Of a DNA stretch of 64,000 bases, positions 25,100-38,849 are shown one piece after another (the first letter of the stretch is position 1; each line of letters starts with the position of its first letter). The stretch is taken from positions 7,780 through 71,779 of the forward strand of contig JBBIUB010000003.1 in the NCBI GenBank assembly GCA_037440465.1, written 5' to 3'. The notes beneath the pieces are model-generated. The model was not told the origin of the DNA and did not search any database. It saw only the letters and a list, made by a program, of their open reading frames with translations. Both the position numbers and the translations under genes were made by a program. This DNA is from Coprothermobacterota bacterium. GTDB taxonomy: Bacteria > Coprothermobacterota > HKB111.

Positions 25100-27178
25100 T
25101 TAACTCTCTTCTTCCTCTATCTTCTTCCCATGTTCAGCAATAATCTTCTCTTGAACCAATGCTGGAACTTCTTCATAGTGAGAAAATTCCTGAACATAGC
25201 TTCCTCTACCTTGAGTCACAGATCTAAGAGCAGCTCCATAATGAAGTATTTCTGACATAGGAGAAAATGATTCTATTCTTTTAAAATTCTTCTCTTCTCC
25301 AAATCCAAGTATTCTGGCTCTACGCGTGTTCAGATCAGAAATTACATCACCCATAAATTTATCAGGCACAGTGACAATGAGTTTCATAACTGGTTCCAAA
25401 ATAACCGGTTTAGCACGTTGCATACCCCTCTTAAGTGCCATCTGACCTGCAATCTTAAACGATATGTCAGAAGAATCAACTTCATGGTATGAACCATCGT
25501 AAAGAACAACTTTTATATCAACTATTGGAAACCCAGCAAGAACTCCTTCAAGTAACGCTTCTTTTACTCCTTTCTCAACAGAAGGCACATAATTCTTTGG
25601 TACTGAACCCCCAAATAATTCCTCATCAAAAATGAACCCTCCACCTCGCGCTAAAGGTTCTATTCTAATAAAAACATGTCCGTATTGACCACGACCGCCA
25701 GTTTGCTTCTTATGTTTGTATTCACTCTCTACTTTTATCTTGACTGTCTCTTGATAGGGTATCTTGGGCTCCTCGAGAATTACTTTTGCACCGAACTTGG
25801 ACTGTAGTTTTTCAACTACTGTTTCAACATGTATATCTCCCATCCCGATAATTAGAACCTGATTTGTGTTAGAATCCCGAGAAACTTTAAGAGTTGGGTC
25901 ACTGATAAGAACCCGCTGAAGTGCACCACTTAATTTATCTTCATCACCCTTGCTCTTCGGCCTGATAGCAACAGTTACCATGGGAGGAGGATAAGAAATG
26001 GGTTCATATAATACTGGACTCCCTTTATCGCAGAGCGTATCATTAGTGGTTGTATCCTGCAATTTTGCAACTATTACAATATCCCCCGCTATTGCTTCTT
26101 CAACAATAAACTGATTCTTTCCTCTCATTCGGTAAAGCTGGCTTATTTTTTCTTCTTTACCCTTATTACTGTTAAGTACTACTGTATCAGGCGTTAGTCT
26201 ACCAGTGTGAATTTTTAGGAAGTTAAGTTGTCCTACATAAGGGTCTGCTATAGTTTTAAAAACAAATGCACTGAAAAGTTTTTCTGGCGAGGATATTAAT
26301 GTGTTTTTCTCCCCGGTTTTGGAGTCTATTATAGCCATCTGTTTCTGATTTGATTCAGGAAAATTTTTAATATAGTAAAGAAGCCTCTTAATCCCCGAAA
26401 GGTTAAAGGCTGAACCAGCTAAAACTGGAAAAACTCTTCTTTCCCTTACCCCTTTTTCGAGGGCAGCGTTAAGCTCTGAAATTTCCAGTTCCTCACCTTC
26501 TAAGTACTTAGTAAGGAGTTCATCATCCAGTTCTGCCAAACGTTCAACCAACATCTCACGCCATCTACCATATTCCTTCTTAACACTTTCAGTAGTTAAA
26601 GATGCCTTCTCTTCCTTTCCTTTAGGGATATCAAAGGTTTCCCATGTCAACAAATCAATCACTCCTGTAAAACTATTACCTTCTCCAATTGGAACTACTA
26701 AAGGAACAATGGAAGAACCAAAGAGGTTTCTGAGCTGTTCAAGATTCTTAAAATAAGTCGAACCTTCTCTTTCCATCTTATTAATAAAGAAAAACAAAGG
26801 TAGTTCATAATCCTGAGCATAACCCCATATTTTCTCTGTTCCCACTTCAACTCCCGATATGCCAGAGAGCAATAAAAGTAGACCATCTGATACCTTTAAT
26901 CCAGATTTGATTTCACCAACGAAATCGTCAAAACCTGGTAGATCCAAGAGATTAACCTTAATACCATTAAGAGAAAAGGGAAGAAGAGAAAGATTAATAC
27001 TCGTTCTTCTCCTTATCTCTTCAGGATCATAATCAGAAAGAGTATTGCTTTCTTCAACTTTACCCACACGATCAGTGACTCCTGTCAGATAAAGAATGGC
27101 TTCAGAAAGTGATGTTTTACCAGCACCTGCGTGGGAAGCCAGAGCAACGTTTCTTAATGTGACTTTTTCGTCTTTCAT
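25100..27178 (-). CDS. Elongation factor G paralog (EF-G2-like)
   Basis: Five-domain EF-G layout (KQTGGRGQYG, DGSYHEVDSS) with divergent G motifs: HAGAGKT, RRTSI, DLPGF, NKME; not in an rpsL-rpsG operon. Confidence 0.9.
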   Translation of the reverse strand: MKDEKVTLRNVALASHAGAGKTSLSEAILYLTGVTDRVGKVEESNTLSDYDPEEIRRRTSINLSLLPFSLNGIKVNLLDLPGFDDFVGEIKSGLKVSDGLLLLLSGISGVEVGTEKIWGYAQDYELPLFFFINKMEREGSTYFKNLEQLRNLFGSSIVPLVVPIGEGNSFTGVIDLLTWETFDIPKGKEEKASLTTESVKKEYGRWREMLVERLAELDDELLTKYLEGEELEISELNAALEKGVRERRVFPVLAGSAFNLSGIKRLLYYIKNFPESNQKQMAIIDSKTGEKNTLISSPEKLFSAFVFKTIADPYVGQLNFLKIHTGRLTPDTVVLNSNKGKEEKISQLYRMRGKNQFIVEEAIAGDIVIVAKLQDTTTNDTLCDKGSPVLYEPISYPPPMVTVAIRPKSKGDEDKLSGALQRVLISDPTLKVSRDSNTNQVLIIGMGDIHVETVVEKLQSKFGAKVILEEPKIPYQETVKIKVESEYKHKKQTGGRGQYGHVFIRIEPLARGGGFIFDEELFGGSVPKNYVPSVEKGVKEALLEGVLAGFPIVDIKVVLYDGSYHEVDSSDISFKIAGQMALKRGMQRAKPVILEPVMKLIVTVPDKFMGDVISDLNTRRARILGFGEEKNFKRIESFSPMSEILHYGAALRSVTQGRGSYVQEFSHYEEVPALVQEKIIAEHGKKIEEEES

Positions 27179-27300
27179 ATATAAATCCTCCAGAATAATT
27201 TTTATGCAATCTTATATATCTATTGTTTTTATTATACCCTAAAACTCTATTCTCACTGCATTAGTAAATAAGTTGGGTAACATCTCTCATGCTATTTATA

Positions 27301-27329
27301 TTGACACTTCTTCATCTCTCCCTTATAAT
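27301..27329 (+). promoter_or_regulatory. Perfect-consensus sigma70 promoter of the tRNA cluster
   Basis: TTGACA-17 bp-TATAAT. Confidence 0.9.
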
Positions 27330-27368
27330 TATTATTGCTGGCTTAACAGCATTACTAACATATATCAA

Positions 27369-27453
27369 GCCCGGGTGGTGGAATTGGCAGACACGTACGT
27401 TTGAGGGGCGTATGGGGAGACCCTTGTGAGTTCAAGTCTCACCCCGGGCACCA
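27369..27453 (+). tRNA. tRNA-Leu (GAG)
   Basis: GCCCGGG/CCCGGGC acceptor stem, TACGT-TTGAGGG-GCGTA anticodon arm, long variable arm, encoded CCA. Confidence 0.97.
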
Positions 27454-27459
27454 TAAAAA

Positions 27460-27534
27460 GGGCGGATAGTTCAGCGGGAGAACGCTTGCCTTACACGCAA
27501 GAAGTCACAGGTTCGAATCCTGTTCCGCCCACCA
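27460..27534 (+). tRNA. tRNA-Val (TAC)
   Basis: GGGCGGA/TCCGCCC stem, CTTGC-CTTACAC-GCAAG arm, GGTTCGAATCC T-arm, CCA. Confidence 0.97.
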
Positions 27535-27554
27535 TATATAATATATTTGTAAGC

Positions 27555-27631
27555 GGGGGCGTAGTGCAGCGGCTTAACACGCCGGCCTGTCAAGCCGGAG
27601 ATCGCGGGTTCGAAACCCGTCGTCCCCGCCA
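27555..27631 (+). tRNA. tRNA-Asp (GTC)
   Basis: GGGGGCG/CGTCCCC stem, CCGGC-CTGTCAA-GCCGG arm, G73 discriminator, CCA. Confidence 0.97.
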
Positions 27632-27696
27632 TAATGTATCAATAAATATCTAATATTTGCCATAGTGGTTTCTTTCCTATGTTAACATCAAACTGC

Positions 27697-27725
27697 TTGA
27701 CATCTAAGTATCTTAAGAATAAAAT
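27697..27725 (+). promoter_or_regulatory. Sigma70 promoter of proS
   Basis: TTGACA-17 bp-TAAAAT. Confidence 0.75.
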
Positions 27726-27774
27726 AACTTAAATATTTTTTTAAGTTTTCACACTTCCGGAGGTTTAACTGATA

Positions 27775-29532
27775 ATGAGAACAAGTAAACTTTTCGCTCC
27801 AACTCTGCGGGAAGACCCAGCAGAAGCAGAAGTTGACTCCCATAAACTATTGCTAAGAGCTGGATTTATCAAACAGGTAGCTGCAGGAGTATTTGTTTTC
27901 CTTCCTCTTGGTCTAAGGTCTATTAAAAAAATAGAAAATATAATCAGAGAAGAACATGACAAAATCGGTGCTCAGGAAGTATTTCTTTCAGTTCTTCAAC
28001 CAAGAGAACTCTGGGAAGAGACTGGTCGCTGGGACCTTTATGGTGATATTCTTTTTCGTCTAAAAGATCGACGGGGTAGAGACCTAGCTCTGGGTCCTAC
28101 TCATGAAGAACCAATTACGGATATAATAAGAAACTTGGTCAATAGTTACAAAGAATTACCCATTGCTTTATATCAAATCCAGACAAAATTTCGTGATGAA
28201 CTTCGTCCACGATTTGGACTCATCAGGGGAAGAGAATTTTTAATGAAAGACATGTATAGCTTCCACGAAACACCAGAAAACCTGGAATCTTTTTATAGTC
28301 ATGTAAGTAGAGCTTATGAGAGAATCTTTTCCCGCCTTGGGTTAACTTACCATCTTGTAGAAGCTGATCCCGGAACCATAGGTGGCTCAGCCAATCATGA
28401 ATTCCTGGTACCAGGTCTTTCTGGAGAATCCCAATTTTTCATATGTGATAACTGTGGATACAAGGCAACTTCTGAAAAAGTTACTGGTGGTGTTGCAATA
28501 ATGCCACCAAAAAATGAAATCTCACCAATCAAGGAAGTTTATACTCCGGGAACTGATAGTATTGAAAAACTCTCTGAATATCTAAAAGTAGAACCCAGCG
28601 AGATAATTAAGACGATGGTATACATAATTGATGGGAAGTCAACAATCGTTTTATTGAGGGGTGATTATGAGGTTAATGAGACCAAGGTTATAAATAAACT
28701 TGCTGCCATTGACATAAGGGTGGCTACGGGAGAGGAAGTTCTGACTCTATTCTCCTCTCCAGTTGGTTTTCTTGGTCCGGTAAATCTCCTAACCAATTTA
28801 CCAATACTTGTTGATGAAAGTATTTTTACTGTAACATCAGGAGTTGTTGGAGCTAACAAAGAAGATTACCATTTATCTGGTTTTAACCCTCAAAGGGATT
28901 TACCCACTGGAATCATCAGGGGTGATTACAGAAACACCAGAAATGGAGACCTCTGCCCTCATTGTTACCAGTCTTTAAAGGAACTGCAGGGCATGGAAGT
29001 TGGTCATGTCTTTAACCTTGGTTCTAAATACTCACATTCAATGAAGGCTACTTTCACCGATAAAGATGGCAAAGGACAGAAATATTTAATGGGTTGTTAC
29101 GGCGTGGGCATCAGCAGAACCTTACAATCCATTGCTGAAGAACATCACGATGAATTTGGGTTGAAGTGGCCCATTGCATCAGCCCCCTATGAAGTAATTA
29201 TAATACCTATTGACTATCGCGATACCGAACAGAAAAAAGTGGCCGAAGAGCTTTATTTTAATTTACAAGAAGAAGGGTTGGAAGTCGTTCTTGATGACCG
29301 AGAAGTAACTGCCGGGGTTAAGTTTAACGATGCTGACTTAATTGGCTACCCAATTAGAGTGACTATAAGTTCCAGAACCCTCAAACAGTATTCTTTGGAA
29401 GTAATGTTGAGAAAAGATCGATCTACTACACTGATTCCGACTAATACAGCTAAATTCTACATTAAAGAGGTTAAAGCCAAATTATTTAATGAATTAATTG
29501 AAAGAACTCCTCCCCTTCTAACCTCCAGCTAA
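27775..29532 (+). CDS. proS: Proline--tRNA ligase (bacterial type with editing insertion)
   Basis: LGPTHEE, FRDELRPRFGLIRGREF, GANK editing motif, MGCYGVGISR. Confidence 0.98.
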   Translation: MRTSKLFAPTLREDPAEAEVDSHKLLLRAGFIKQVAAGVFVFLPLGLRSIKKIENIIREEHDKIGAQEVFLSVLQPRELWEETGRWDLYGDILFRLKDRRGRDLALGPTHEEPITDIIRNLVNSYKELPIALYQIQTKFRDELRPRFGLIRGREFLMKDMYSFHETPENLESFYSHVSRAYERIFSRLGLTYHLVEADPGTIGGSANHEFLVPGLSGESQFFICDNCGYKATSEKVTGGVAIMPPKNEISPIKEVYTPGTDSIEKLSEYLKVEPSEIIKTMVYIIDGKSTIVLLRGDYEVNETKVINKLAAIDIRVATGEEVLTLFSSPVGFLGPVNLLTNLPILVDESIFTVTSGVVGANKEDYHLSGFNPQRDLPTGIIRGDYRNTRNGDLCPHCYQSLKELQGMEVGHVFNLGSKYSHSMKATFTDKDGKGQKYLMGCYGVGISRTLQSIAEEHHDEFGLKWPIASAPYEVIIIPIDYRDTEQKKVAEELYFNLQEEGLEVVLDDREVTAGVKFNDADLIGYPIRVTISSRTLKQYSLEVMLRKDRSTTLIPTNTAKFYIKEVKAKLFNELIERTPPLLTSS

Positions 29533-29751
29533 GGGCGAGAGAATAAATACTTCCTCTCCCCCTTGAAGGAGAACATCCTTCCCTACAGCTTTTCCATTTA
29601 CAAGAAAAGCCATAGCTTGATTGGAGGAAAAACCCAGGGTTTCGAGAACCTGGGAAATAGTTAGCGGTGTATCTATAGAAACAGTTAACTCATCTTGATT
29701 TTTAAAGTAAAGCTCTTTAAGATGACCCAGAACCTTGAATGTTACTTTCAC
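29518..29751 (-). CDS. MoaD/ThiS-family sulfur carrier
   Basis: 77 aa ubiquitin-like, C-terminal PLAGG; directly after AOR. Confidence 0.9.
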   Translation of the reverse strand: MKVTFKVLGHLKELYFKNQDELTVSIDTPLTISQVLETLGFSSNQAMAFLVNGKAVGKDVLLQGGEEVFILSPLAGG

Positions 29752-31604
29752 TATTTGTAAAAACCTCTCTTTTTCAAATCCTCTACCACAAAATCCAGTC
29801 TTAGCTCTTTAAGCTTCTCTTCTTTAGGCAGACCATTGTCGTCCCACCCCCGAAGAGCATAATACTCATCTAAAAGCTTATGAATAAGCTCTTCTGAGAT
29901 ATATTTACCTTCTGCAGGACCTGTGGGGACAGGTTCTTTATACCATCTTTTAGGTGGAAGGTCAGAACTTCTGCCAAAACCAGGAACCTCCCTGAACCAA
30001 TATGCACGGGTCAAATTCCAGATTTTCTCTGAGATTCTTAAAAGGTCTTCCCAAGAGTAAGGAAAACCGGTAATAGCCTGAAATATAGGCTCGTAATGAT
30101 TTAGAGAAAGGCCAATTTCCACCCACTGAAGACGACAGGAACCAAGAGCATCAAAAAGAGGTCTTATATGTTGGAGTTCTATTACCCTCTTAGCTTTACC
30201 CTCTATTTTATCTCTACCTACTTGAACATCATAAGTAAAAGCCCAAGCTCTATTGTGGTGTGCCCCAACATCAGCGGTCATATAAGCCAACATCATGGCT
30301 GGAGCATATCTGGACTCATATCCACTTATCTCCATACCTTTAATCTCCATAGCATAATCCTGACTTCCCATGCCAAGTACCTTTGCTGTTTCTCTAACAC
30401 CTTTCGCCAGAATATCTCCTAAACCTTCTCTCGTGGCTATCCTGTTAGCCAGTGAAGCCAGTCCCTTTACATCACCCCATGCTACCTTTCCGCCCATATC
30501 TGTTTCACTAAGGACCCCTTTTTCCTGAGCTTCTAAAGCAAAAGCCAGAACATTTCCTCCCGAGATTGTATCAAGACCGAGGTCATCCAGAACATAATTA
30601 AGGTAAGCCACCTCATCAATATCTTTCAAAAGAAGATTCCCACCAAGTAAGGCTATAGTTTCATATTCAGGACCTTCAACATAAATATCTTCAGTATCCA
30701 TTTTCACTCTGGAATATTTACCGCATGGTGTGGGGCACCCAAAGCAACCCTTGTCAGTCACCACTATCTTTTCTCTCATCACCTCACCGACAAGATTTTC
30801 ATACCCTTCCATATAGGATGCCCAGAAATTTTTGGTGGGAAAAGCACTGTTTTCGTTAACCCAGCGAACCACTCCGGGTGTGCCATAATCAGTCCAGTAA
30901 GCATAACCAGGCTTATTTCTAACATCTTCATACATCTTCTTGCCTAATTCTAATACTCTCACAGGGTCCTTTAAGGGGAAACCTTTTGTACCTCTAATTC
31001 CCACAGCTTTAATCTTTTTATACCCCATCATAGTTCCCATACCAGCCCTACCAGCCTGACGACCAAAGTCATGATTAATGCAAGCAAAATTCACTAGATT
31101 TTCCCCTGCAGGTCCTATAACCATAAACTCAAATTCTTCACCAAATTCATGCTTTAAGAGCCTTTCTGTCTCAAAAGCACCCTTTCCCCAAAGGTGAGAA
31201 GCATCTCTAAAAGTAATGTTATTATCATCAATGAGAATTATAATGGGTTCCTCACTCACTTCTTTTATCACAATCAAATCATAACCAGCAAATTTCATTT
31301 CTGATGCAATATGCCCACCCATATTGGAGTCCCCATACCCTCCCGTTAGGGGCGATTTTGCACCTATTTCCACCTTTCCAGCCCCTGCAACCAAGGTTCC
31401 TGAAAGAGGTCCAGAAGCAATGTAAAGGTGATTATCATCACTTAGTGGTTTTACTCCTGATGGAGTATGAGTATATTCCATGAAGGCCGTAAAACCTCTG
31501 CCCCCCAGAAAGTTCTCAGCCATATAATTATCCGTTAATGTTATTGAACTACATCTCTTTCCTAAATCTATCCACAGAGTTTTTCCTCCATATCCATAAA
31601 GCAT
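29751..31604 (-). CDS. Aldehyde:ferredoxin oxidoreductase family (W/Mo-bis-pterin) catalytic subunit
   Basis: FLGGRG, KSPLTGG..DSNMGG, IGPAGE, CFGCPTPC, EGPEYET, DDLGLDTIS, YYALRGWD..G.P. Confidence 0.95.
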   Translation of the reverse strand: MLYGYGGKTLWIDLGKRCSSITLTDNYMAENFLGGRGFTAFMEYTHTPSGVKPLSDDNHLYIASGPLSGTLVAGAGKVEIGAKSPLTGGYGDSNMGGHIASEMKFAGYDLIVIKEVSEEPIIILIDDNNITFRDASHLWGKGAFETERLLKHEFGEEFEFMVIGPAGENLVNFACINHDFGRQAGRAGMGTMMGYKKIKAVGIRGTKGFPLKDPVRVLELGKKMYEDVRNKPGYAYWTDYGTPGVVRWVNENSAFPTKNFWASYMEGYENLVGEVMREKIVVTDKGCFGCPTPCGKYSRVKMDTEDIYVEGPEYETIALLGGNLLLKDIDEVAYLNYVLDDLGLDTISGGNVLAFALEAQEKGVLSETDMGGKVAWGDVKGLASLANRIATREGLGDILAKGVRETAKVLGMGSQDYAMEIKGMEISGYESRYAPAMMLAYMTADVGAHHNRAWAFTYDVQVGRDKIEGKAKRVIELQHIRPLFDALGSCRLQWVEIGLSLNHYEPIFQAITGFPYSWEDLLRISEKIWNLTRAYWFREVPGFGRSSDLPPKRWYKEPVPTGPAEGKYISEELIHKLLDEYYALRGWDDNGLPKEEKLKELRLDFVVEDLKKRGFYK

Positions 31605-31607
31605 TGA

Positions 31608-32006
31608 TTATCCCTCCTTTTCAAAGTTTATAGCCCCATGTGGGCAGACCACACTACAATCACCACACCAGTCGCATTTAAGTGGTAATCTGGAATCTAC
31701 ATCCATAAAGAGAACTTTCTTAGGACATACCTCAAAGCATAAACCACATTCAGTACAAAGTTCTTTATTAAGCTTCACAATGCCTTTATCAAAAAATAAG
31801 GCTGATGTTGGACATATATTTGAACAATCACCGCACTGATCACAAAAGTTAACATGATAAACGCCTGGAATAGGAAATTCACCATTTATCCTTATGGCTC
31901 CTTTAGTAGGATTATTTTCCATAAGCTTTGCAAGAGAACATACAAGTTCACAAGCTTTACAACCCGAACATCGTTTATCTTCAACTAACATTTTAGCCAC
32001 TTTCAT
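31608..32006 (-). CDS. Multi-[4Fe-4S] subunit of AOR
   Basis: Four CxxCxxCxxxC(P) groups. Confidence 0.9.
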   Translation of the reverse strand: MKVAKMLVEDKRCSGCKACELVCSLAKLMENNPTKGAIRINGEFPIPGVYHVNFCDQCGDCSNICPTSALFFDKGIVKLNKELCTECGLCFEVCPKKVLFMDVDSRLPLKCDWCGDCSVVCPHGAINFEKEG

Positions 32007-32028
32007 TAACCTCCTTCAAAAATTATGT

Positions 32029-33180
32029 CTACCCAACTACACTTGGTTCTTTTATAAGTTCCCCTCTCACAAACCTGTGATAGTCAAGCGCATTTATATT
32101 TATTGAGGGTTCTTCTCCCAATATAATTTGTGATAGAAGCTCTCCACTCATTGGAGATAGCATAAAACCGTGACCTGAAAAACCTGTAGAAATATAAAGA
32201 CCTTCTACTTCTGATATTTTACCAATAATTGGTGTTGCATCAGGAGTCATATCATAACTCCCACCCCATTGCCTTACAACCCTTACATTCTTGAAAAATG
32301 GAAAAAGCCTGTTTATCTTTTTACTCATAGTGCGGAGAAAATCAAAGGTAGAAGAAATGTCCTCTCCTTTAGGTTCATTGGGATCACCACAACCCATAAT
32401 AAAACTGCCATGAGGTGTTTGTTGACAATATAAGTTTAGTGAAAAAGAGATGACCATTGATTTAACCATAGGTTCTAAGGGTTCTGTTACTAATGCCTGG
32501 TGTTTTTCTCCCCATAAGGGTATTTCAATATCAATATCTTTTAATAAATTTACGGTATTAATACCGGAAGTTACCACAACCTTATCTGCATAAATCTTTC
32601 CCTTTTCTGTTTCAACTCCTACTATCCTTTCTTTCTCTCTTATGAGTTGATTAACAGGAGTAAATTTCTTTATTTCTACTCCCATTCTGGATGCAGCTTC
32701 TCCATAGGCAAAAACTACTCTATGGGGGTCAGCGTATCCGTCTCTCCCATGAAAGGTACCACCCAGTACTCCCTCAATATTCAAGTAAGGTACAATTTCT
32801 TTTGCTTCAGCAGGAGTTATTAATAATGATCTAATCCCAAAAGAATTCTGTAAAGTTACATTTTTTCTGAGTTGCTCAAATTCGCTTTCTTGATAAGCGA
32901 GTATAAGATAACCTCCTTGCTTAAGATGTATTCCCCCTGGAAAATTCAGTTCTTCGTCCATCATTTCAAATTTCTCAAGGGATTTTAAAGCCAGAAGACA
33001 ATTAATAGGAAGTCCCCATTGTGCCCTGATACCGGCAGCGCAAGCACCAGTAGCACCTGAACCAAGATAGTTCTTTTCAAGTAGAATGATTTTACCTGCC
33101 TTCTTTGAAGCCAGATGATAAGCCAGAGATACCCCCTGACATCCACCTCCTACAATGATGATATCTGCAGTTTCAATCAT
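32029..33180 (-). CDS. FAD-dependent oxidoreductase, sarcosine oxidase beta / dye-linked proline dehydrogenase beta family
   Basis: IIVGGG..G, GSGATG..AAGIRAQW, YDMTPDATPIIG, TGFSGHGFMLSP. Confidence 0.9.
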   Translation of the reverse strand: MIETADIIIVGGGCQGVSLAYHLASKKAGKIILLEKNYLGSGATGACAAGIRAQWGLPINCLLALKSLEKFEMMDEELNFPGGIHLKQGGYLILAYQESEFEQLRKNVTLQNSFGIRSLLITPAEAKEIVPYLNIEGVLGGTFHGRDGYADPHRVVFAYGEAASRMGVEIKKFTPVNQLIREKERIVGVETEKGKIYADKVVVTSGINTVNLLKDIDIEIPLWGEKHQALVTEPLEPMVKSMVISFSLNLYCQQTPHGSFIMGCGDPNEPKGEDISSTFDFLRTMSKKINRLFPFFKNVRVVRQWGGSYDMTPDATPIIGKISEVEGLYISTGFSGHGFMLSPMSGELLSQIILGEEPSININALDYHRFVRGELIKEPSVVG

Positions 33181-33454
33181 CTTCTTCTCCCAGAATTTCT
33201 TTGAAGATTATCGGCTTTGCTGGAGGACGGGCGTGAGTAGGTCTTAAAGGTTGTTCTTTAATATCTTTCTTTAAGTATCTGGTTATTTCCTGAAGGATTA
33301 ACAACTTGCAGGTTTTACCCTGACAGGGACCCATACCGGCTCTACTCAAACGTTTAATTTCGTCAAAAGTGGTATATCCACGCTTTAAGTATTCTCTTAA
33401 ATCCTTAAGGGTTAAGTCTTCACATCTACAGATAATTACTTTATCTTCTTTCAT
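33173..33454 (-). CDS. BFD-like [2Fe-2S] binding subunit
   Basis: ICRCED..GMGPCQGKTC..RPP. Confidence 0.88.
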   Translation of the reverse strand: MKEDKVIICRCEDLTLKDLREYLKRGYTTFDEIKRLSRAGMGPCQGKTCKLLILQEITRYLKKDIKEQPLRPTHARPPAKPIIFKEILGEEDD

Positions 33455-33959
33455 TTAACCTTTTCAAATAAAAGTGTCTTATATCCATAACCTGATTAAG
33501 AGGCACAAGGATTGTCACCATAGGAGTCTTAGCTTTTCTCCCAGAGATTTTAACTTCATCAACTATTACCTCTCCTACGATATTTCCCTCTCTGTCAACT
33601 GCTAGAACACTTTCTCCTTTTTCAGGTAACGGCTGGAATTCGTAGGGCATAGATATTGAAGCCTGATTATTTCCAACAGTTTCGTCTATTAAGAAAATAG
33701 CCAAACCGGGGCATTCAGAAACACATAAACCACAACCCGTGCATCTATCAAAATCAATTTCAGGTAAATCGTTAATATTAACAAACTCTTTTACAGCCTT
33801 GAAAGGACAGGCAGCATAACAAGGGTCGCAGGGTATCTCTTCAAAACACTCTATCATTGCATAAGGACCTTCACATCTTCTTTTTTTTGACGGAATAAAT
33901 CTTTTTAATTCTTCTTTTGTTGGAACCCCTGTTTTTTCAAGCATACTTAAATCCTTCAA
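33441..33959 (-). CDS. [4Fe-4S] ferredoxin-like subunit (PdhF/gamma type)
   Basis: ECFEEIPCDPCYAACP and CTGCGLCVSECPGLAIF; PYEF.PLP. Confidence 0.88.
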   Translation of the reverse strand: MKDLSMLEKTGVPTKEELKRFIPSKKRRCEGPYAMIECFEEIPCDPCYAACPFKAVKEFVNINDLPEIDFDRCTGCGLCVSECPGLAIFLIDETVGNNQASISMPYEFQPLPEKGESVLAVDREGNIVGEVIVDEVKISGRKAKTPMVTILVPLNQVMDIRHFYLKRLNERR

Positions 33960-35061
33960 TTACAGATTGTTTATCATTAGTTTTTAACTTAGAAATACCT
34001 TCTTTAATTTTGAAGCTCTTAGGACCAGCTCTATATTTACTCAAGGATTCAAGTATCCTTTCTATTTCTCTATCAACACCATCTCTAATATAACCTATAT
34101 CTTGAGCTGCTACCAAACCAGCTAACCTTCCTTGAAGCATAGCCGTGGTAGCTTCCTCTACTCCTGCTAAATCCCCTACCACAAAGATTTCTTTTCTTGA
34201 AGTACGCATGAATTCATCATGAAAAGGAACAAAACCACCAAGTTCTGGGATATATACAAATTTCAACCCACACTGTTCCAGAAGTTCGCCAAGCGGATTT
34301 AAACCAACTGCTAAAGAGATAACATCAACTTTGAGGACTTTTTCTGTCCCAGGTACTGGTCTTAGGTTATTATCTAAAGCAGTGATTACAGCTTCCTCTA
34401 CTTTATTTTCTCCTCTCGCTTCCAGAATAGTATGTCTTAAATAAATTGGAATGCCCATTCGCCTTATCTTACTTGCATGAACCAGATAGCCTCCTATTTT
34501 AGGCATAGCATCTAAAACACAAATGACTCTTGCTCCAGCTTGAAGAAGTTGATAGCTAACAATTAAACCAATATTTCCTGCTCCAACCATGAGATAAGTA
34601 TCGCCAGGAAGGACGCCATTTACATTCATTAAAGTCTGGATAGCTCCAGCAGCATATACTCCGGGAAGATCGTTACCGGGGAAAAGAAGCATTCTCTCTG
34701 AAGCACCGGTGGCAAAAATAACCCTATCATACCTTATTTTTTTTAAGGTCTGATTATGACTGTATATAATAGTACAATCGGGATAAAATGCAACAACCTC
34801 CCCCCCTTGAATAGTTTTAAGGTTCCCATTTTCAGAAGACTTAATTTCCTCTGATAACCTTGTGGCTATATCTATTCCTCTAACACCAGCTTGTTCCTTA
34901 TAAGTACCAAAAAACTTGTGGGTTTGTTTTATCAGTTGACCACCGAGTGTTTCTTGCCTATCAATCAGAGTAACACAAGCTCCAAGGTTAGAAGCTGCCA
35001 GTGCAGCCATAAGGCCTGCTGGACCACCTCCAACTACCAGAACCTGAGTATCTTTCATCAA
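33937..35061 (-). CDS. FAD/NAD(P)-dependent oxidoreductase (proline dehydrogenase alpha-like)
   Basis: VGGGPAG, GGQLIKQTHKFFG, ATGASER, FPGNDLPGV, GAGNIG, GD.AGVEEA. Confidence 0.9.
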   Translation of the reverse strand: MMKDTQVLVVGGGPAGLMAALAASNLGACVTLIDRQETLGGQLIKQTHKFFGTYKEQAGVRGIDIATRLSEEIKSSENGNLKTIQGGEVVAFYPDCTIIYSHNQTLKKIRYDRVIFATGASERMLLFPGNDLPGVYAAGAIQTLMNVNGVLPGDTYLMVGAGNIGLIVSYQLLQAGARVICVLDAMPKIGGYLVHASKIRRMGIPIYLRHTILEARGENKVEEAVITALDNNLRPVPGTEKVLKVDVISLAVGLNPLGELLEQCGLKFVYIPELGGFVPFHDEFMRTSRKEIFVVGDLAGVEEATTAMLQGRLAGLVAAQDIGYIRDGVDREIERILESLSKYRAGPKSFKIKEGISKLKTNDKQSVIEGFKYA

Positions 35062-35363
35062 AAAATTCCTTTACCTTCCTGGGTATGGATCTTCATGCCT
35101 TCTCTTAACGGGGTTACACATATTCGTACATTAGGCATACCATCAACTTCCATAAGGCAGGAAGAACAGTTCCCAATAACGCAAAAAAATCCCCGAGGTC
35201 TCTTTAGTTTAATAGAAGTGTGAAAGTTATATATTCCATAAGAAATTAATGCTGAGGCAATTGTATCTCCCTCAAAACCAGATAATTCTTTTCCATTAAA
35301 GGTAAAAGAGATTATTTTCCGGCGTGGAAAATTAAGAATGGGATGTTTCAAAATTCTCTTCAA
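35058..35363 (-). CDS. [2Fe-2S] subunit (Fer2_4; sarcosine oxidase alpha N-terminal-like)
   Basis: GDTIASAL, RPRGFFCVIGNCSSCLM..NVRIC. Confidence 0.9.
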   Translation of the reverse strand: MKRILKHPILNFPRRKIISFTFNGKELSGFEGDTIASALISYGIYNFHTSIKLKRPRGFFCVIGNCSSCLMEVDGMPNVRICVTPLREGMKIHTQEGKGIF

Positions 35364-35525
35364 GGAAGAGATTCTCCTTGATAGCAGGTGTTTATCTTTA
35401 TATTAAAACAAAACCAGATTAACATCAGAAAAAGTATAACATAGTAAAACCACTAAAAAGTTCACTTAAACCTCTTGAATTCATAAATCAAAATGGTCTA
35501 ACTAATTTAAGCTTAGTATATATTT

Positions 35526-36254
35526 TTAAGGAGAATGAGCTTCCGTAGCTGGTAAAGTTCCATCAAAAAACAACTTACCTCCCTTCAAGGTCAGGGATTT
35601 TATGGATAAACCTGAAACAGTCTTAAGACGAGCTTCAATAAAATTGATAATATCCTCATTTGATATAGGAAACAATCCCAATTCTAAAGGAACAGGTAAC
35701 CTGCCTATCTCCAGTTTTTTAATATCTAACTCTATTTCATTGTTAATTATTGAACCGGTACCCTTAATATAAAATGGAGGATTGGTTTTTAGAAAACCAA
35801 CTCTTTTCATAGCAGATTCTGCTTGATCTGAATCTACACCAAAGGCTTTAAGGCAGGGAATAATACGGTCCACCAGTATTACTCCAGAGGCTTCAGCCAT
35901 TCCATCCTCATGGATTTTAAGTTGAACATCCTTAACGGGAAAGTATTTCCAGGGACGATTGTGAATAAGGGCGGTTAATTCTTTATCAGTAAACGAGGTT
36001 TTAACAACCTTTGTTCCTGAATATTTCAGGCTTTCTTCTGGGGATAAGTCTGATGGGAGTAACACATATTTTGTACCTGTTTTAGACCTACCAGTATTAA
36101 AATCATCTTGTGTAAAAGTTGCTCCGAGATCTTTGGGTTTATCAGAACCAAATATCCTGGACACTCCAGGGATCAGTCCAAAATACCCTAATATGAGGAC
36201 AGCTATTACAACAACAATACCAATAAAAATAATGAGTCTAAGAATCACTTTCAT
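35526..36254 (-). CDS. Hypothetical membrane-anchored protein
   Basis: 242-aa ORF, N-terminal TM, purine-rich SD; no family recognised. Confidence 0.7.
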   Translation of the reverse strand: MKVILRLIIFIGIVVVIAVLILGYFGLIPGVSRIFGSDKPKDLGATFTQDDFNTGRSKTGTKYVLLPSDLSPEESLKYSGTKVVKTSFTDKELTALIHNRPWKYFPVKDVQLKIHEDGMAEASGVILVDRIIPCLKAFGVDSDQAESAMKRVGFLKTNPPFYIKGTGSIINNEIELDIKKLEIGRLPVPLELGLFPISNEDIINFIEARLKTVSGLSIKSLTLKGGKLFFDGTLPATEAHSP

Positions 36255-36264
36255 TTTTTCCCCC

Positions 36265-37292
36265 TTATAAGGATAAGTTGTTTTTCATTATATCACTAAA
36301 GTTCAAAGAATTAAGAGGAATGGGTGTTAACTTTTTCTCATAATATTTCCAGGCAGGTTGTCTAACGAAGCCAAGCTCTTCATTTATAGCCAACATGCCC
36401 GTATTAATTGAGTCGTTCCATGTTTTAATGGTTTTATATCCATAGTTCTTTGCATATTCTATAGCCTTATATTTTAAAGCCATAGCTATACCACGTCTGT
36501 GGTATTCTGGCCTTATCCCCGTAAGTCCCTGATATAAATCCTGAGGTGAGGCTTTGGAAATATGCAAACAACACCGTCCAATATAAAATTCTTTATCCTT
36601 AGCAATAAAGTAAGCATCAGGCATGAGGGTAGGAGACTTAAAATGGCTTCGTTTATACTCTTCAAAAGTAATAGGAGTATAGGGGTCTGGCTTGGGGACA
36701 TCTCTCCAGAGGGTATTATCCAATTCAAAAAGCCTGTAATCCCAATCAGTAGTCTTTTCCTTCTCCTCTATCATGGTAGTAAAATCTATCCCCTGCTTTA
36801 AAACAGTTTCCAGGGATGAATAAAATTCTTCAAGTTTAAAATCCTGCAAATTCAGCCTTGATTCCCATTCACGCCTTTTTTCTTCAAATCCTCTTTTTTC
36901 CAGAAAGGTTGCTACCTCTTTTCTATCCTCCCGTGCATTTGCCCTCAAGATAACAGCATTTAGAGAGTTCACCTCTTCCAATATCTTTTCGTATAGAAGA
37001 GTTCCAATACCCTGTTTCTGCCTCAGGGGATGTACCTGTATATTCACCCGGAATTTCTTTGGATGAAACATTTCGGGCTCGTGATGAAAAAGACCATAGG
37101 AAACTATCTCGTCTCCAGGTTGAATAACTACCACATACCTTTTTTGTAGATACTTCGTCCTATCAAAACTTTCATCCCAATGACGAAGTTCCTCTACAGT
37201 GCTGGGATATTCGGGGTAATTTGCACTCTCTATTCTACTATTGCTTCATAACCATCAGGTTTAAACTCCCTCAAAAATACAGATTGAGCCAT
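36265..37292 (-). pseudogene. Tandem-GNAT acetyltransferase with a 1-nt frameshift near codon 21
   Basis: ATG 37292 reads MAQSVFLREFKPDGYEAIVE then TAG; adding one A near 37232-37234 joins it to IESANYPEYP..YVVVIQPG, continuous with the 289-aa ORF (VHP..QKQGIG; TGIRPEYHRRGIA; N..MLAINEELGF). Confidence 0.75.
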
Positions 37293-37385
37293 TTATACAT
37301 ATCTCTTTGGTTCAAGCAATTTAATTATTTTTTAATTATACATCTATTTTATGCTAATCTATATAAAAATAAAGGCAGGTGATAA

Positions 37386-38849
<1,464 letters not shown>

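Follow-up and report, generated by a model that had tools for sequence, protein, structure and literature searches.

PutA, or a proline dehydrogenase working with a glutamate-semialdehyde dehydrogenase (GSALDH), oxidises proline to glutamate via delta-1-pyrroline-5-carboxylate (P5C) and glutamate gamma-semialdehyde (GSA, that is, 2-amino-glutaric semialdehyde), and the proline oxidation step is too high in potential for the reduction of NAD+. We know of no description of this oxidation in anaerobes devoid of quinones or PutA. Here an eight-gene operon (g1 to g8) was analysed in a window of 64,000 nucleotides (nt), the whole stretch studied, from contig JBBIUB010000003.1 of a Coprothermobacterota bacterium. 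In this operon the genes of a five-polypeptide flavo-iron-sulfur dehydrogenase are followed by those of a polyferredoxin, an aldehyde:ferredoxin oxidoreductase (AOR) and a small sulfur carrier. On the comparisons given below, the operon rather likely encodes an oxygen- and quinone-independent two-step conversion of L-proline to L-glutamate, in which a ferredoxin-linked AOR replaces the NAD-dependent GSALDH and g1-g5 would correspond, in a bacterium, to the heteromeric dye-linked L-proline dehydrogenase (PDH) of Thermococcales. In the first step, g1-g5 would convert L-proline to P5C, which is in equilibrium with GSA. In the second, the tungsten/molybdenum-pterin enzyme g7 would oxidise GSA to glutamate and deliver low-potential electrons to g6, in the role that falls to the NAD-dependent GSALDH in related loci, and g8 would help to make the pterin cofactor.

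A PDH of the alpha-beta-gamma-delta type is reportedly found in Thermococcus profundus, and we take the subunit sizes of g1-g5 to fit this four-subunit type; archaeal PDH is also said to oxidise NADH with dyes. The resemblance to the Thermococcales enzyme (1Y56), already pointed out in the first-pass annotation of this DNA, was borne out by the beta subunit g5, whose best solved relative was the beta subunit of Pyrococcus horikoshii PDH (1Y56_B, 6.7e-79, residues 3-375), versus about 5e-47 for SoxB. In both systems the beta subunit has the DAO fold and the Arg-X-Trp FMN motif, the alpha subunit binds FAD/NAD and begins with a [2Fe-2S] part, and small Fe-S subunits are present. The locus described here differs in that it is bacterial, that alpha is split into two genes and that the gene of an aldehyde-oxidising enzyme comes next. 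In size and cofactor motifs, the g3 and g4 products would suit the Thermococcales gamma and delta subunits; among the 116 g3 homologs listed by a word-based search of limited reach, no Thermococcales ortholog was present.

With PutA and the proline dehydrogenase-GSALDH pair, the operon would share the four-electron route from proline to glutamate via P5C/GSA, and in homologous loci a GSALDH gene occupies the slot of the AOR gene. The protein families are not shared: a profile search for the PutA-type Pro_dh domain (PF01619) gave 0/13 genomes in the window's phylum, and no member of the aldehyde dehydrogenase family PF00171, ProA-type included, was found in the window's own genome (94.5% complete). 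The operon combines flavin and Fe-S centres with a pterin metal centre and presumably uses ferredoxin and NAD as acceptors, not quinone and NAD; it would work like PutA without being a member of that family.

The AOR g7 retains the equivalents of the cluster cysteines and of Glu308, Tyr416, His437, Arg481 and Arg492 of Pyrococcus furiosus formaldehyde oxidoreductase (FOR; 1B25/1B4N), in which Arg481 and Arg492 presumably contact glutarate. FOR is described as a homotetramer using free ferredoxin, whereas here the gene of a four-cluster polyferredoxin precedes that of the AOR, and the Y-E-x-R motif, D445 and R452 conserved in the bacterial clade are not present in FOR. The lowest Km of FOR is for glutaric dialdehyde, the enzyme was crystallised with glutarate, and a C5 semi- or dialdehyde has been suggested as what it really acts on, its natural substrate being regarded as unsettled (PMC12096430).

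Polyferredoxin-AOR units coupled to NAD-reducing flavoproteins are known from AorABC(DE) of Aromatoleum aromaticum and WOR1 of gut anaerobes (PMC6365974, PMC12096430), which resemble the operon in having a four-cluster polyferredoxin beside the AOR and MoaD-like genes; in A. aromaticum, the MoaD-like aorD/aorE follow aorABC (PMC6365974). The flavoprotein of the operon is a substrate-oxidising PDH-type complex, neither AorC nor HydABC-like, and its AOR is FOR-like, not an AOR sensu stricto. No AorC-type subunit was detected, since g2 gave no match to the AorABC structure 8C0Z at 1e-8. The XOR/GOR cluster of Caldicellulosiruptor was also considered and set aside, as the passages on it in PMC6391272 give only ferredoxin, XOR, tungstate transport and pterin genes and no flavoproteins of this kind.

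A cousin of g1-g5 is FngABC, in which NAD+ reduction requires the simultaneous oxidation of glycerol-3-phosphate and reduced ferredoxin (Schut, Poole and Adams, PMC13689815). Its three subunits are a DAO+BFD protein, an FAD/NAD protein of the cyanogenesis/opine/glycerol-3-phosphate family and a small [4Fe-4S] protein, and the enzyme, a dye-linked dehydrogenase, can pass electrons from NADH to dyes as well (PMC13689815). Both systems combine a DAO-fold FAD dehydrogenase with a BFD-type [2Fe-2S], an FAD/NAD and a small [4Fe-4S] component, and g2 is 32% identical over 322 amino acids (aa) to an FngB-like protein of the same genome, its KQTH motif aligning with the QCIH of the latter. In the operon, however, the BFD component is a separate gene and not part of an FngA fusion, there is an extra Fer2_4 subunit, a 2x[4Fe-4S] domain stands in place of DUF1667 and KQTH in place of QCIH, and the substrate would be another, so that the module is related to FngABC but does not belong to it. 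The word proline does not occur in the FngABC paper (PMC13689815).

Gene content and cofactor motifs of the operon

The families of g1-g8 were assigned by Pfam and NCBIfam profile searches (Table 1). Their open reading frames (ORFs) are on the minus strand, from 35363 to 29518, at the coordinates given by the first-pass annotation, which had described eight genes overlapping or at most 22 nt apart; the ORF coordinates, families and junctions (-4, -23, -14, -8, +22, +3 and -1 nt from g1 to g8) agree with this description. GGAG-type ribosome-binding sites precede g1, g2, g6 and g7, the site of g6, 22 nt past g5, being strong. The g3 ORF probably starts at the ATG at 33944 (MLEKTG..., the sixth codon, giving 167 aa) and less likely at the upstream TTG at 33959, because most orthologs and the recorded gene call P0121 (167 aa) begin there; the g2/g3 overlap then shrinks to 8 nt.

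Table 1. Position and assignment of the operon features on the window.
Feature	Position	Strand	Basis	Presumed role
Upstream intergenic region	35364..35525	-	162 nt, AT-rich, sole gap >22 nt in the cluster	Contains the operon promoter
g1, small [2Fe-2S] subunit (N-terminal piece of PDH alpha; HcnA / opine dehydrogenase gamma equivalent)	35058..35363	-	Fer2_4 8.9e-31	
g2, FAD/NAD(P)-binding alpha subunit	33937..35061	-	Pyr_redox_2 2.6e-37	NAD+ site
g3, gamma subunit, 2x[4Fe-4S] ferredoxin domain and conserved C-terminal domain	33441..33959	-	Fer4 families, 172 aa	Low-potential electron port
g4, delta subunit, BFD-like [2Fe-2S] / sarcosine-oxidase A3 (SO_alpha_A3)	33173..33454	-	PF17806 1.7e-11, PF04324 (Fer2_BFD) 1.5e-9	
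g5, beta subunit, DAO-fold FAD dehydrogenase	32029..33180	-	DAO (PF01266) 2.9e-67	L-proline dehydrogenase active site
g6, polyferredoxin, four [4Fe-4S]	31608..32006	-	Fer4 dicluster domains, four CxxCxxCxxxC motifs	Electron-transfer partner of the g7 AOR
g7, AOR-family (tungsto)pterin enzyme	29751..31604	-	AFOR_N 6.2e-69, AFOR_C 9.6e-123	Glutamate-semialdehyde:ferredoxin oxidoreductase
g8, MoaD/ThiS-like sulfur carrier	29518..29751	-	ThiS 2e-08, C-terminal Gly-Gly	Pterin-cofactor maturation factor

A separate promoter before 32006, which the first-pass annotation had named as a finding that would speak against its proposal, left no distinct signal: a consensus scan of positions 27000-38000 gave 27 sigma-70-like hits compared to 28.8 +/- 5.1 in shuffled sequences. 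The scan of the same region found no terminator-like site inside any of the g1-g8 junctions. Upstream of g1, no sigma-54 promoter was seen by eye, no formal scan having been made.

The g1 product aligns with positions 14-99 of SoxA, and its C61-x4-C66-x2-C69-x12-C82 motif is invariant in 29 orthologs. Positions 168-485 of SoxA align with g2 (8.5e-42), which also matched 2GAG_A (8e-20) and 1Y56_A (1e-12) among the solved structures; in the ortholog alignment its ADP-binding glycines G11, G13 and G16 and its KQTH motif are invariant. Eight cysteines of g3 (C38, 44, 47, 51, 73, 76, 79 and 83), enough for two [4Fe-4S] clusters, are invariant in 29 orthologs. A relationship of g3 to FngC/DUF1667 was tested with hhalign and rejected (probability 0.3). 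In g4, C9-x-C11 and C44-x4-C49 were read off the translation and are separated by 32 residues, a longer spacer than the 15-20 residues given for the alpha-subunit C-x-C...C-x4-C motif (PMC4575208). Among the 116 g3 homologs listed, 12 are g3-g4 fusions of 246-289 aa, and g1 is joined to g2 in one locus (L111, 490 aa); these fusions support the view that g1 to g4 are parts of one enzyme.

Arg-X-Trp is the FMN motif of the heteromeric DAO-type amine dehydrogenases (Watanabe and co-workers, PMC4575208). In g5 it occurs as R303-Q-W305, which is invariant in nine orthologs together with G11, G13 and G16 and thus stands beside the DAO fold and the GxGxxG motif that also characterise these beta subunits; FAD/NAD binding and the two kinds of [2Fe-2S] motif that characterise the alpha subunits are provided by g2, g1 and g4 together. 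The soxB subfamily profile matched g5 at 7.5e-67, which is under its cut-off.

Fifteen of the 16 cysteines of g6 are invariant in 24 orthologs and the remaining one is conserved in at least 90% of them; in the FOR-like bacterial clade, most loci have a polyferredoxin of this type immediately ahead of the AOR. The best solved match of g7 was P. furiosus FOR (1B25, 2.1e-153, 515 bits, full length; 386 bits for 1AOR), and it is by this match that g7 is tentatively placed in the FOR clade, although it has a polyferredoxin partner gene; FOR itself is not part of the AOR tree. The cluster cysteines 287, 290, 294 and 490 and the second-shell residues Thr242, Glu315, Tyr429 and His450 are kept, the latter being the residue set of the AOR/WOR family as reviewed in PMC12096430, and because all eight are conserved g7 looks catalytically competent. 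Two other module-linked AORs (L114 and L115) align with a Leu in place of the second-shell Thr and a Thr in place of the third cluster Cys, which may be genuine, for instance with a 3Fe cluster, or may come from a local error in the alignment.

Distribution of AOR and GSALDH beside the dehydrogenase module

The genes surrounding the module were examined in a metagenome sample of 80 loci with a beta alignment, 56 of which have all five module genes in order and 73 of which extend at least 300 nt past g5. An aldehyde dehydrogenase was the commonest neighbour, and the 20 such proteins tested all exceeded the curated GSALDH equivalog cut-offs (729-800 bits vs 613.6 for TIGR01236, 729-801 bits vs 659.65 for TIGR01237). 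The two enzymes alternate in the same slot: after g5, a GSALDH gene was found in 19 of the 73 loci and polyferredoxin/AOR genes in 12. When both sides of the module were counted in the 80 loci, GSALDH was present in 22, AOR in 14 and both in two.

In the window's phylum, where the g1-g5 module is present in 13/13 genomes, AOR and GSALDH are complementary. Seven genomes contain an AOR ortholog (>=52% identity), and six of them have no Aldedh match; the only one in the seventh (G003, with 10% contamination) scored 82 bits over 274/461 profile positions within an 874-aa frame and is not a GSALDH candidate. Each of five genomes without an AOR ortholog encodes an Aldedh protein of 543-544 aa, and the two that were checked (G004 and G007) scored 809 and 798 bits on TIGR01236. 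In the remaining genome (G009, 81% complete) neither was seen. The genus labelled g3 in our set (five genomes) has no AOR ortholog. The G009 locus stops at a contig edge. The AOR gene follows that of beta in the window's genome (G000) and, with no polyferredoxin gene between, in G005, G006 and G010. In the corresponding loci (L102, L103 and L107) and in L125, the AOR gene lies ~20-30 nt after that of beta, which indicates that the polyferredoxin connector is dispensable for the linkage.

A second phylum was sampled with 401 genomes centred on G051. A beta homolog at 43-53% identity was present in 100 of them, and the first 80 of these were examined. A FOR-like AOR (48-58% identity) was found in 32 of the 80 and lay just after beta in 17, and all 17 loci, once fetched, showed g1-g7 in the window's order. 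This arrangement is therefore not due to chance, as the same order recurs in 17/80 module-bearing genomes of another phylum. A MoaD-like gene was detectable after the AOR in 10 of these 17 operons. No GSALDH was found in 13 of the 17 genomes and, at the thresholds used, seven of the 80 genomes contained both AOR and GSALDH, 25 only AOR, 22 only GSALDH and 26 neither. The odds ratio for the association of the two was 0.33 (p = 0.035), and the TIGR01236-type GSALDH co-occurred with AOR in 0/13 genomes (p = 0.001), p-values which overstate the case because related genomes are not independent.

A scan centred on the AOR, for which 80 loci were kept out of at least 598 relatives, would alone have suggested that the linkage is not conserved: the polyferredoxin-AOR pair was common and the full g1-g7 set was met once, in a further metagenome-assembled genome (MAG; L009). 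The module-centred scans reversed this picture, and lack of conserved linkage, which would have counted against the first-pass proposal, is contradicted by the 17/80 genomes of the other phylum and 14/80 metagenome loci. In the AOR-centred scan, an orthologous module was present in 7/19 genomes with a FOR-like AOR compared to 1/28 unrelated relatives of the window (p = 0.005, again overstated by the non-independence of related genomes), and four of the seven genomes with both AOR and module have no GSALDH.

In a tree of 99 AORs, those of the window's phylum formed one clade (support 99), and those of L009 and L114/L115 fell elsewhere within a FOR-like bacterial clade of 26 members. The module is also linked to two other groups of AORs, of ~700-730 aa, L132/L141/L152 and L147/L155. 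In the beta tree, AOR-linked and GSALDH-linked modules interleave. The betas of L132, L141 and L152 branch immediately outside a clade made up of nine GSALDH-linked modules and L166, a locus that is unlabelled on the tree yet was scored as GSALDH-adjacent in the metagenome count. The FOR-like labels of L116 and L129 on this tree are unsafe, because they are based only on a polyferredoxin before a contig end; L123, with almost the same beta as L116, carries a distant-type AOR.

Substrate, direction and electron transfer

Gene content, cofactor motifs, conserved gene order and the pattern of AOR and GSALDH are seen in the sequences themselves, and the substrates, direction and electron acceptors of the pathway are inferred. 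Near the 17 AOR-linked operons of the second phylum, four loci encode sigma-54 activators that match PrdR best, over the full length (591-604 bits, below its cut-off of 795; next family at ~355), a regulator that we take to respond to proline. Proline-racemase-like genes lie near two (499 and 462 bits, short of the cut-off of 556), a prolidase-like M24 gene near one, 2-oxoacid:ferredoxin oxidoreductase alpha genes near two and an ornithine-cyclodeaminase-family gene near one; SNF and OPT transporters were also found, and eight share an uninformative argR-recN ... amidase context. Prolidase-like M24 genes, subunits of 2-oxoacid:ferredoxin oxidoreductase and parts of amino-acid ABC transporters recur beside the metagenome modules as well. 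Taken together, the GSALDH, PrdR-like, proline-racemase-like and prolidase neighbours point to proline as the substrate.

The same neighbours bear on the unlikely alternative that the module oxidises sarcosine, N-methylproline, an opine or another secondary amine and that the AOR takes the formaldehyde or glyoxylate released. The nearest solved relative of the AOR is, after all, named formaldehyde oxidoreductase, and family searches found no folate-binding domain in the operon proteins that could trap formaldehyde. Moreover, in a divergent sub-branch (L009:2050-15428, L222:698-10385 and L225; beta 43-45% and AOR 47-48% identical to those of the window), the module is flanked by a BCCT transporter, an octopine-DH-domain protein and PrpD in L009 and by an MttB-family methyltransferase and a prolidase-like gene in L222. 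The window's beta, however, groups in the beta tree with GSALDH-flanked modules and apart from the L009 branch and scores far higher with PDH beta than with SoxB, which, with the neighbours listed above and the complementarity of AOR and GSALDH in the phylum, argues for proline. The first-pass annotation had suggested an anaerobic PutA substitute working through the AOR, with either proline or sarcosine at its start; comparative evidence supports the substitute and favours the proline option, and sarcosine and formaldehyde are kept as an option for L009, L222 and L225.

It is likewise improbable that the linkage serves electron transfer only, the module being an NAD-linked redox partner, as AorC or Wor1ABC are, of a broad-spectrum detoxifying or fermentative AOR whose aldehyde has nothing to do with the product of the DAO subunit. 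Polyferredoxin-AOR units do dock on NAD-reducing flavoproteins in AorABC (PMC6365974) and WOR1 (PMC12096430), a WOR1-like cluster exists in the same genome, and two or three AOR clades are found beside the module. Such a partnership would nevertheless leave the alternation of AOR and GSALDH in one slot and their complementarity in the phylum unexplained, and it fits neither the AORs that directly follow beta without a polyferredoxin connector nor the missing match of g2 to AorABC. Less credible still is the reverse direction, in which the AOR would reduce the gamma-carboxylate of glutamate with reduced ferredoxin in place of ProB/ProA and the resulting P5C would be converted to proline. The window's genome has a P5C reductase (ProC), no ProB above the cut-off and no ProA-type gene, which leaves either a different source of P5C or proline auxotrophy combined with a salvage enzyme; acid reduction by AORs is on record (PMC9295118), and the convergent proS adjoins the operon. 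On the other side, homologous modules are accompanied by genes for catabolic GSALDH, for prolidase and for 2-oxoacid:ferredoxin oxidoreductase, a five-subunit dehydrogenase would be needless given ProC, acid reduction is strongly uphill, and at 94.5% completeness proBA may simply be unassembled.

Several observations weigh against the oxidation of proline to glutamate as the function of the operon. Substrate specificity shifts within the DAO-type dehydrogenase family (PMC4575208), in which the substrate is not readable from homology, and the case for proline is one of sequence comparison throughout. No residues were found that separate module-linked from unlinked AORs of the FOR-like clade, and this clade is not tied to proline alone, since only 7/19 genomes with a FOR-like AOR have the orthologous module; three of these seven also hold a GSALDH. 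The sub-branch of L009, L222 and L225 may act on a methylated proline derivative and release formaldehyde. The linkage is facultative: in the closest relatives (G001-G003), an AOR 78-79% identical to that of the window is on another contig and the module elsewhere. Neither GSALDH nor AOR follows g5 in 42/73 metagenome loci, neither GSALDH nor FOR-like AOR is present in 26/80 genomes of the second phylum, and a TIGR01237-type GSALDH also occurs in 7/32 of its AOR-holding genomes. Two metagenome loci carry both enzymes beside the module, with a polyferredoxin and a distant AOR (~27% identical, ~700 aa) upstream of g1 and a GSALDH directly after g5 (L147:1840-9242 and L155:5388-12811), which also fits a linkage through electron transfer only. 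Finally, the trees were all made with FastTree, and their branch supports are weak evidence.

For the conversion of proline to glutamate by two enzymes, a physical wiring or a confurcation like that of FngABC is plausible by analogy, and the proline module may need low-potential electrons that the AOR could supply directly. A tighter arrangement, with all seven redox proteins united in a single machine or closely coupled as a pair that reduces NAD+ by confurcation, the half-reactions paying for each other, is a tentative and rather doubtful extension. Electrons of very low potential from GSA would then pass through the AOR cluster and the polyferredoxin to the 2x[4Fe-4S] domain of g3, high-potential ones from proline through the beta-FAD, FMN and [2Fe-2S] clusters, and both would meet at the alpha-subunit FAD. 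The net reaction would be proline + 2 NAD+ + 2 H2O -> glutamate + 2 NADH without an external acceptor, at potentials of ~-120 mV for P5C/proline, ~-580 mV for acid/aldehyde and -320 mV for NAD. If true, this would solve the problem of a quinone-less fermenter, for which proline oxidation alone cannot reduce NAD+. A corollary would be that enzymes of the FOR clade have GSA as a physiological substrate. A complex prediction for g6 with g1+g2+g3 scored 0.00 and is uninformative as to binding.

Past glutamate, the pathway could be continued by the glutamate dehydrogenase of the genome. The operon type recurs in at least two phyla as a new combination of known parts, and since both enzyme families were already known, what is new is their pairing and its proposed role. 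[quoted passage not shown] The operon suggests for FOR-clade enzymes a natural substrate that can be put to the test, offers a marker for proline fermentation in uncultured lineages, and may extend the confurcation logic of FngABC to amino-acid catabolism.

Flanking genes and related clusters of the genome

The genes flanking the operon are unrelated to it. Upstream are a protein without a family match and a GNAT protein; downstream, proS (proline-tRNA ligase, in the 27775-29751 region of the window) is convergent with g8 and overlaps it by 15 nt. The sequences fetched for G001 and G003 retain this layout, with AOR, polyferredoxin and MoaD genes beside proS, although the proline-dehydrogenase module is elsewhere in these genomes.

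The genome itself (1.28 Mb in 35 contigs) encodes five AOR paralogs, and its closest named proteins, among the matches listed, come from MAGs of 'candidate division WS2'. An FngABC-like operon on contig C6 (L200:376-5878) contains genes for Dak2, an FGGY glycerol kinase, DAO+BFD (497 aa), Pyr_redox_2 (425 aa) and DUF1667 (138 aa) proteins. The WOR1-like cluster, with its HydB-like and Nuo51-like proteins, is located on contig C1 (L201:1508-6048). It encodes a 610-aa AOR paralog and a polyferredoxin together with a Fer2_4/Fer4/NADH-G protein of 382 aa and a Nuo51-like FMN protein of 390 aa, so that an AOR adjoins a HydABC/Bfu-type module; with this cluster in the same genome, polyferredoxin-AOR units beside NAD-linked flavoprotein modules appear as a local theme. 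Two more polyferredoxin-AOR pairs are present on C1 (L201:8632-19637). One of them is followed by genes for a DHO_dh+Fer4 (PreA-like) protein, a PLP enzyme, an M20 peptidase, a carbamoyltransferase-like protein and an amidohydrolase, a cluster that may serve the degradation of an N-heterocycle or a ureido compound.

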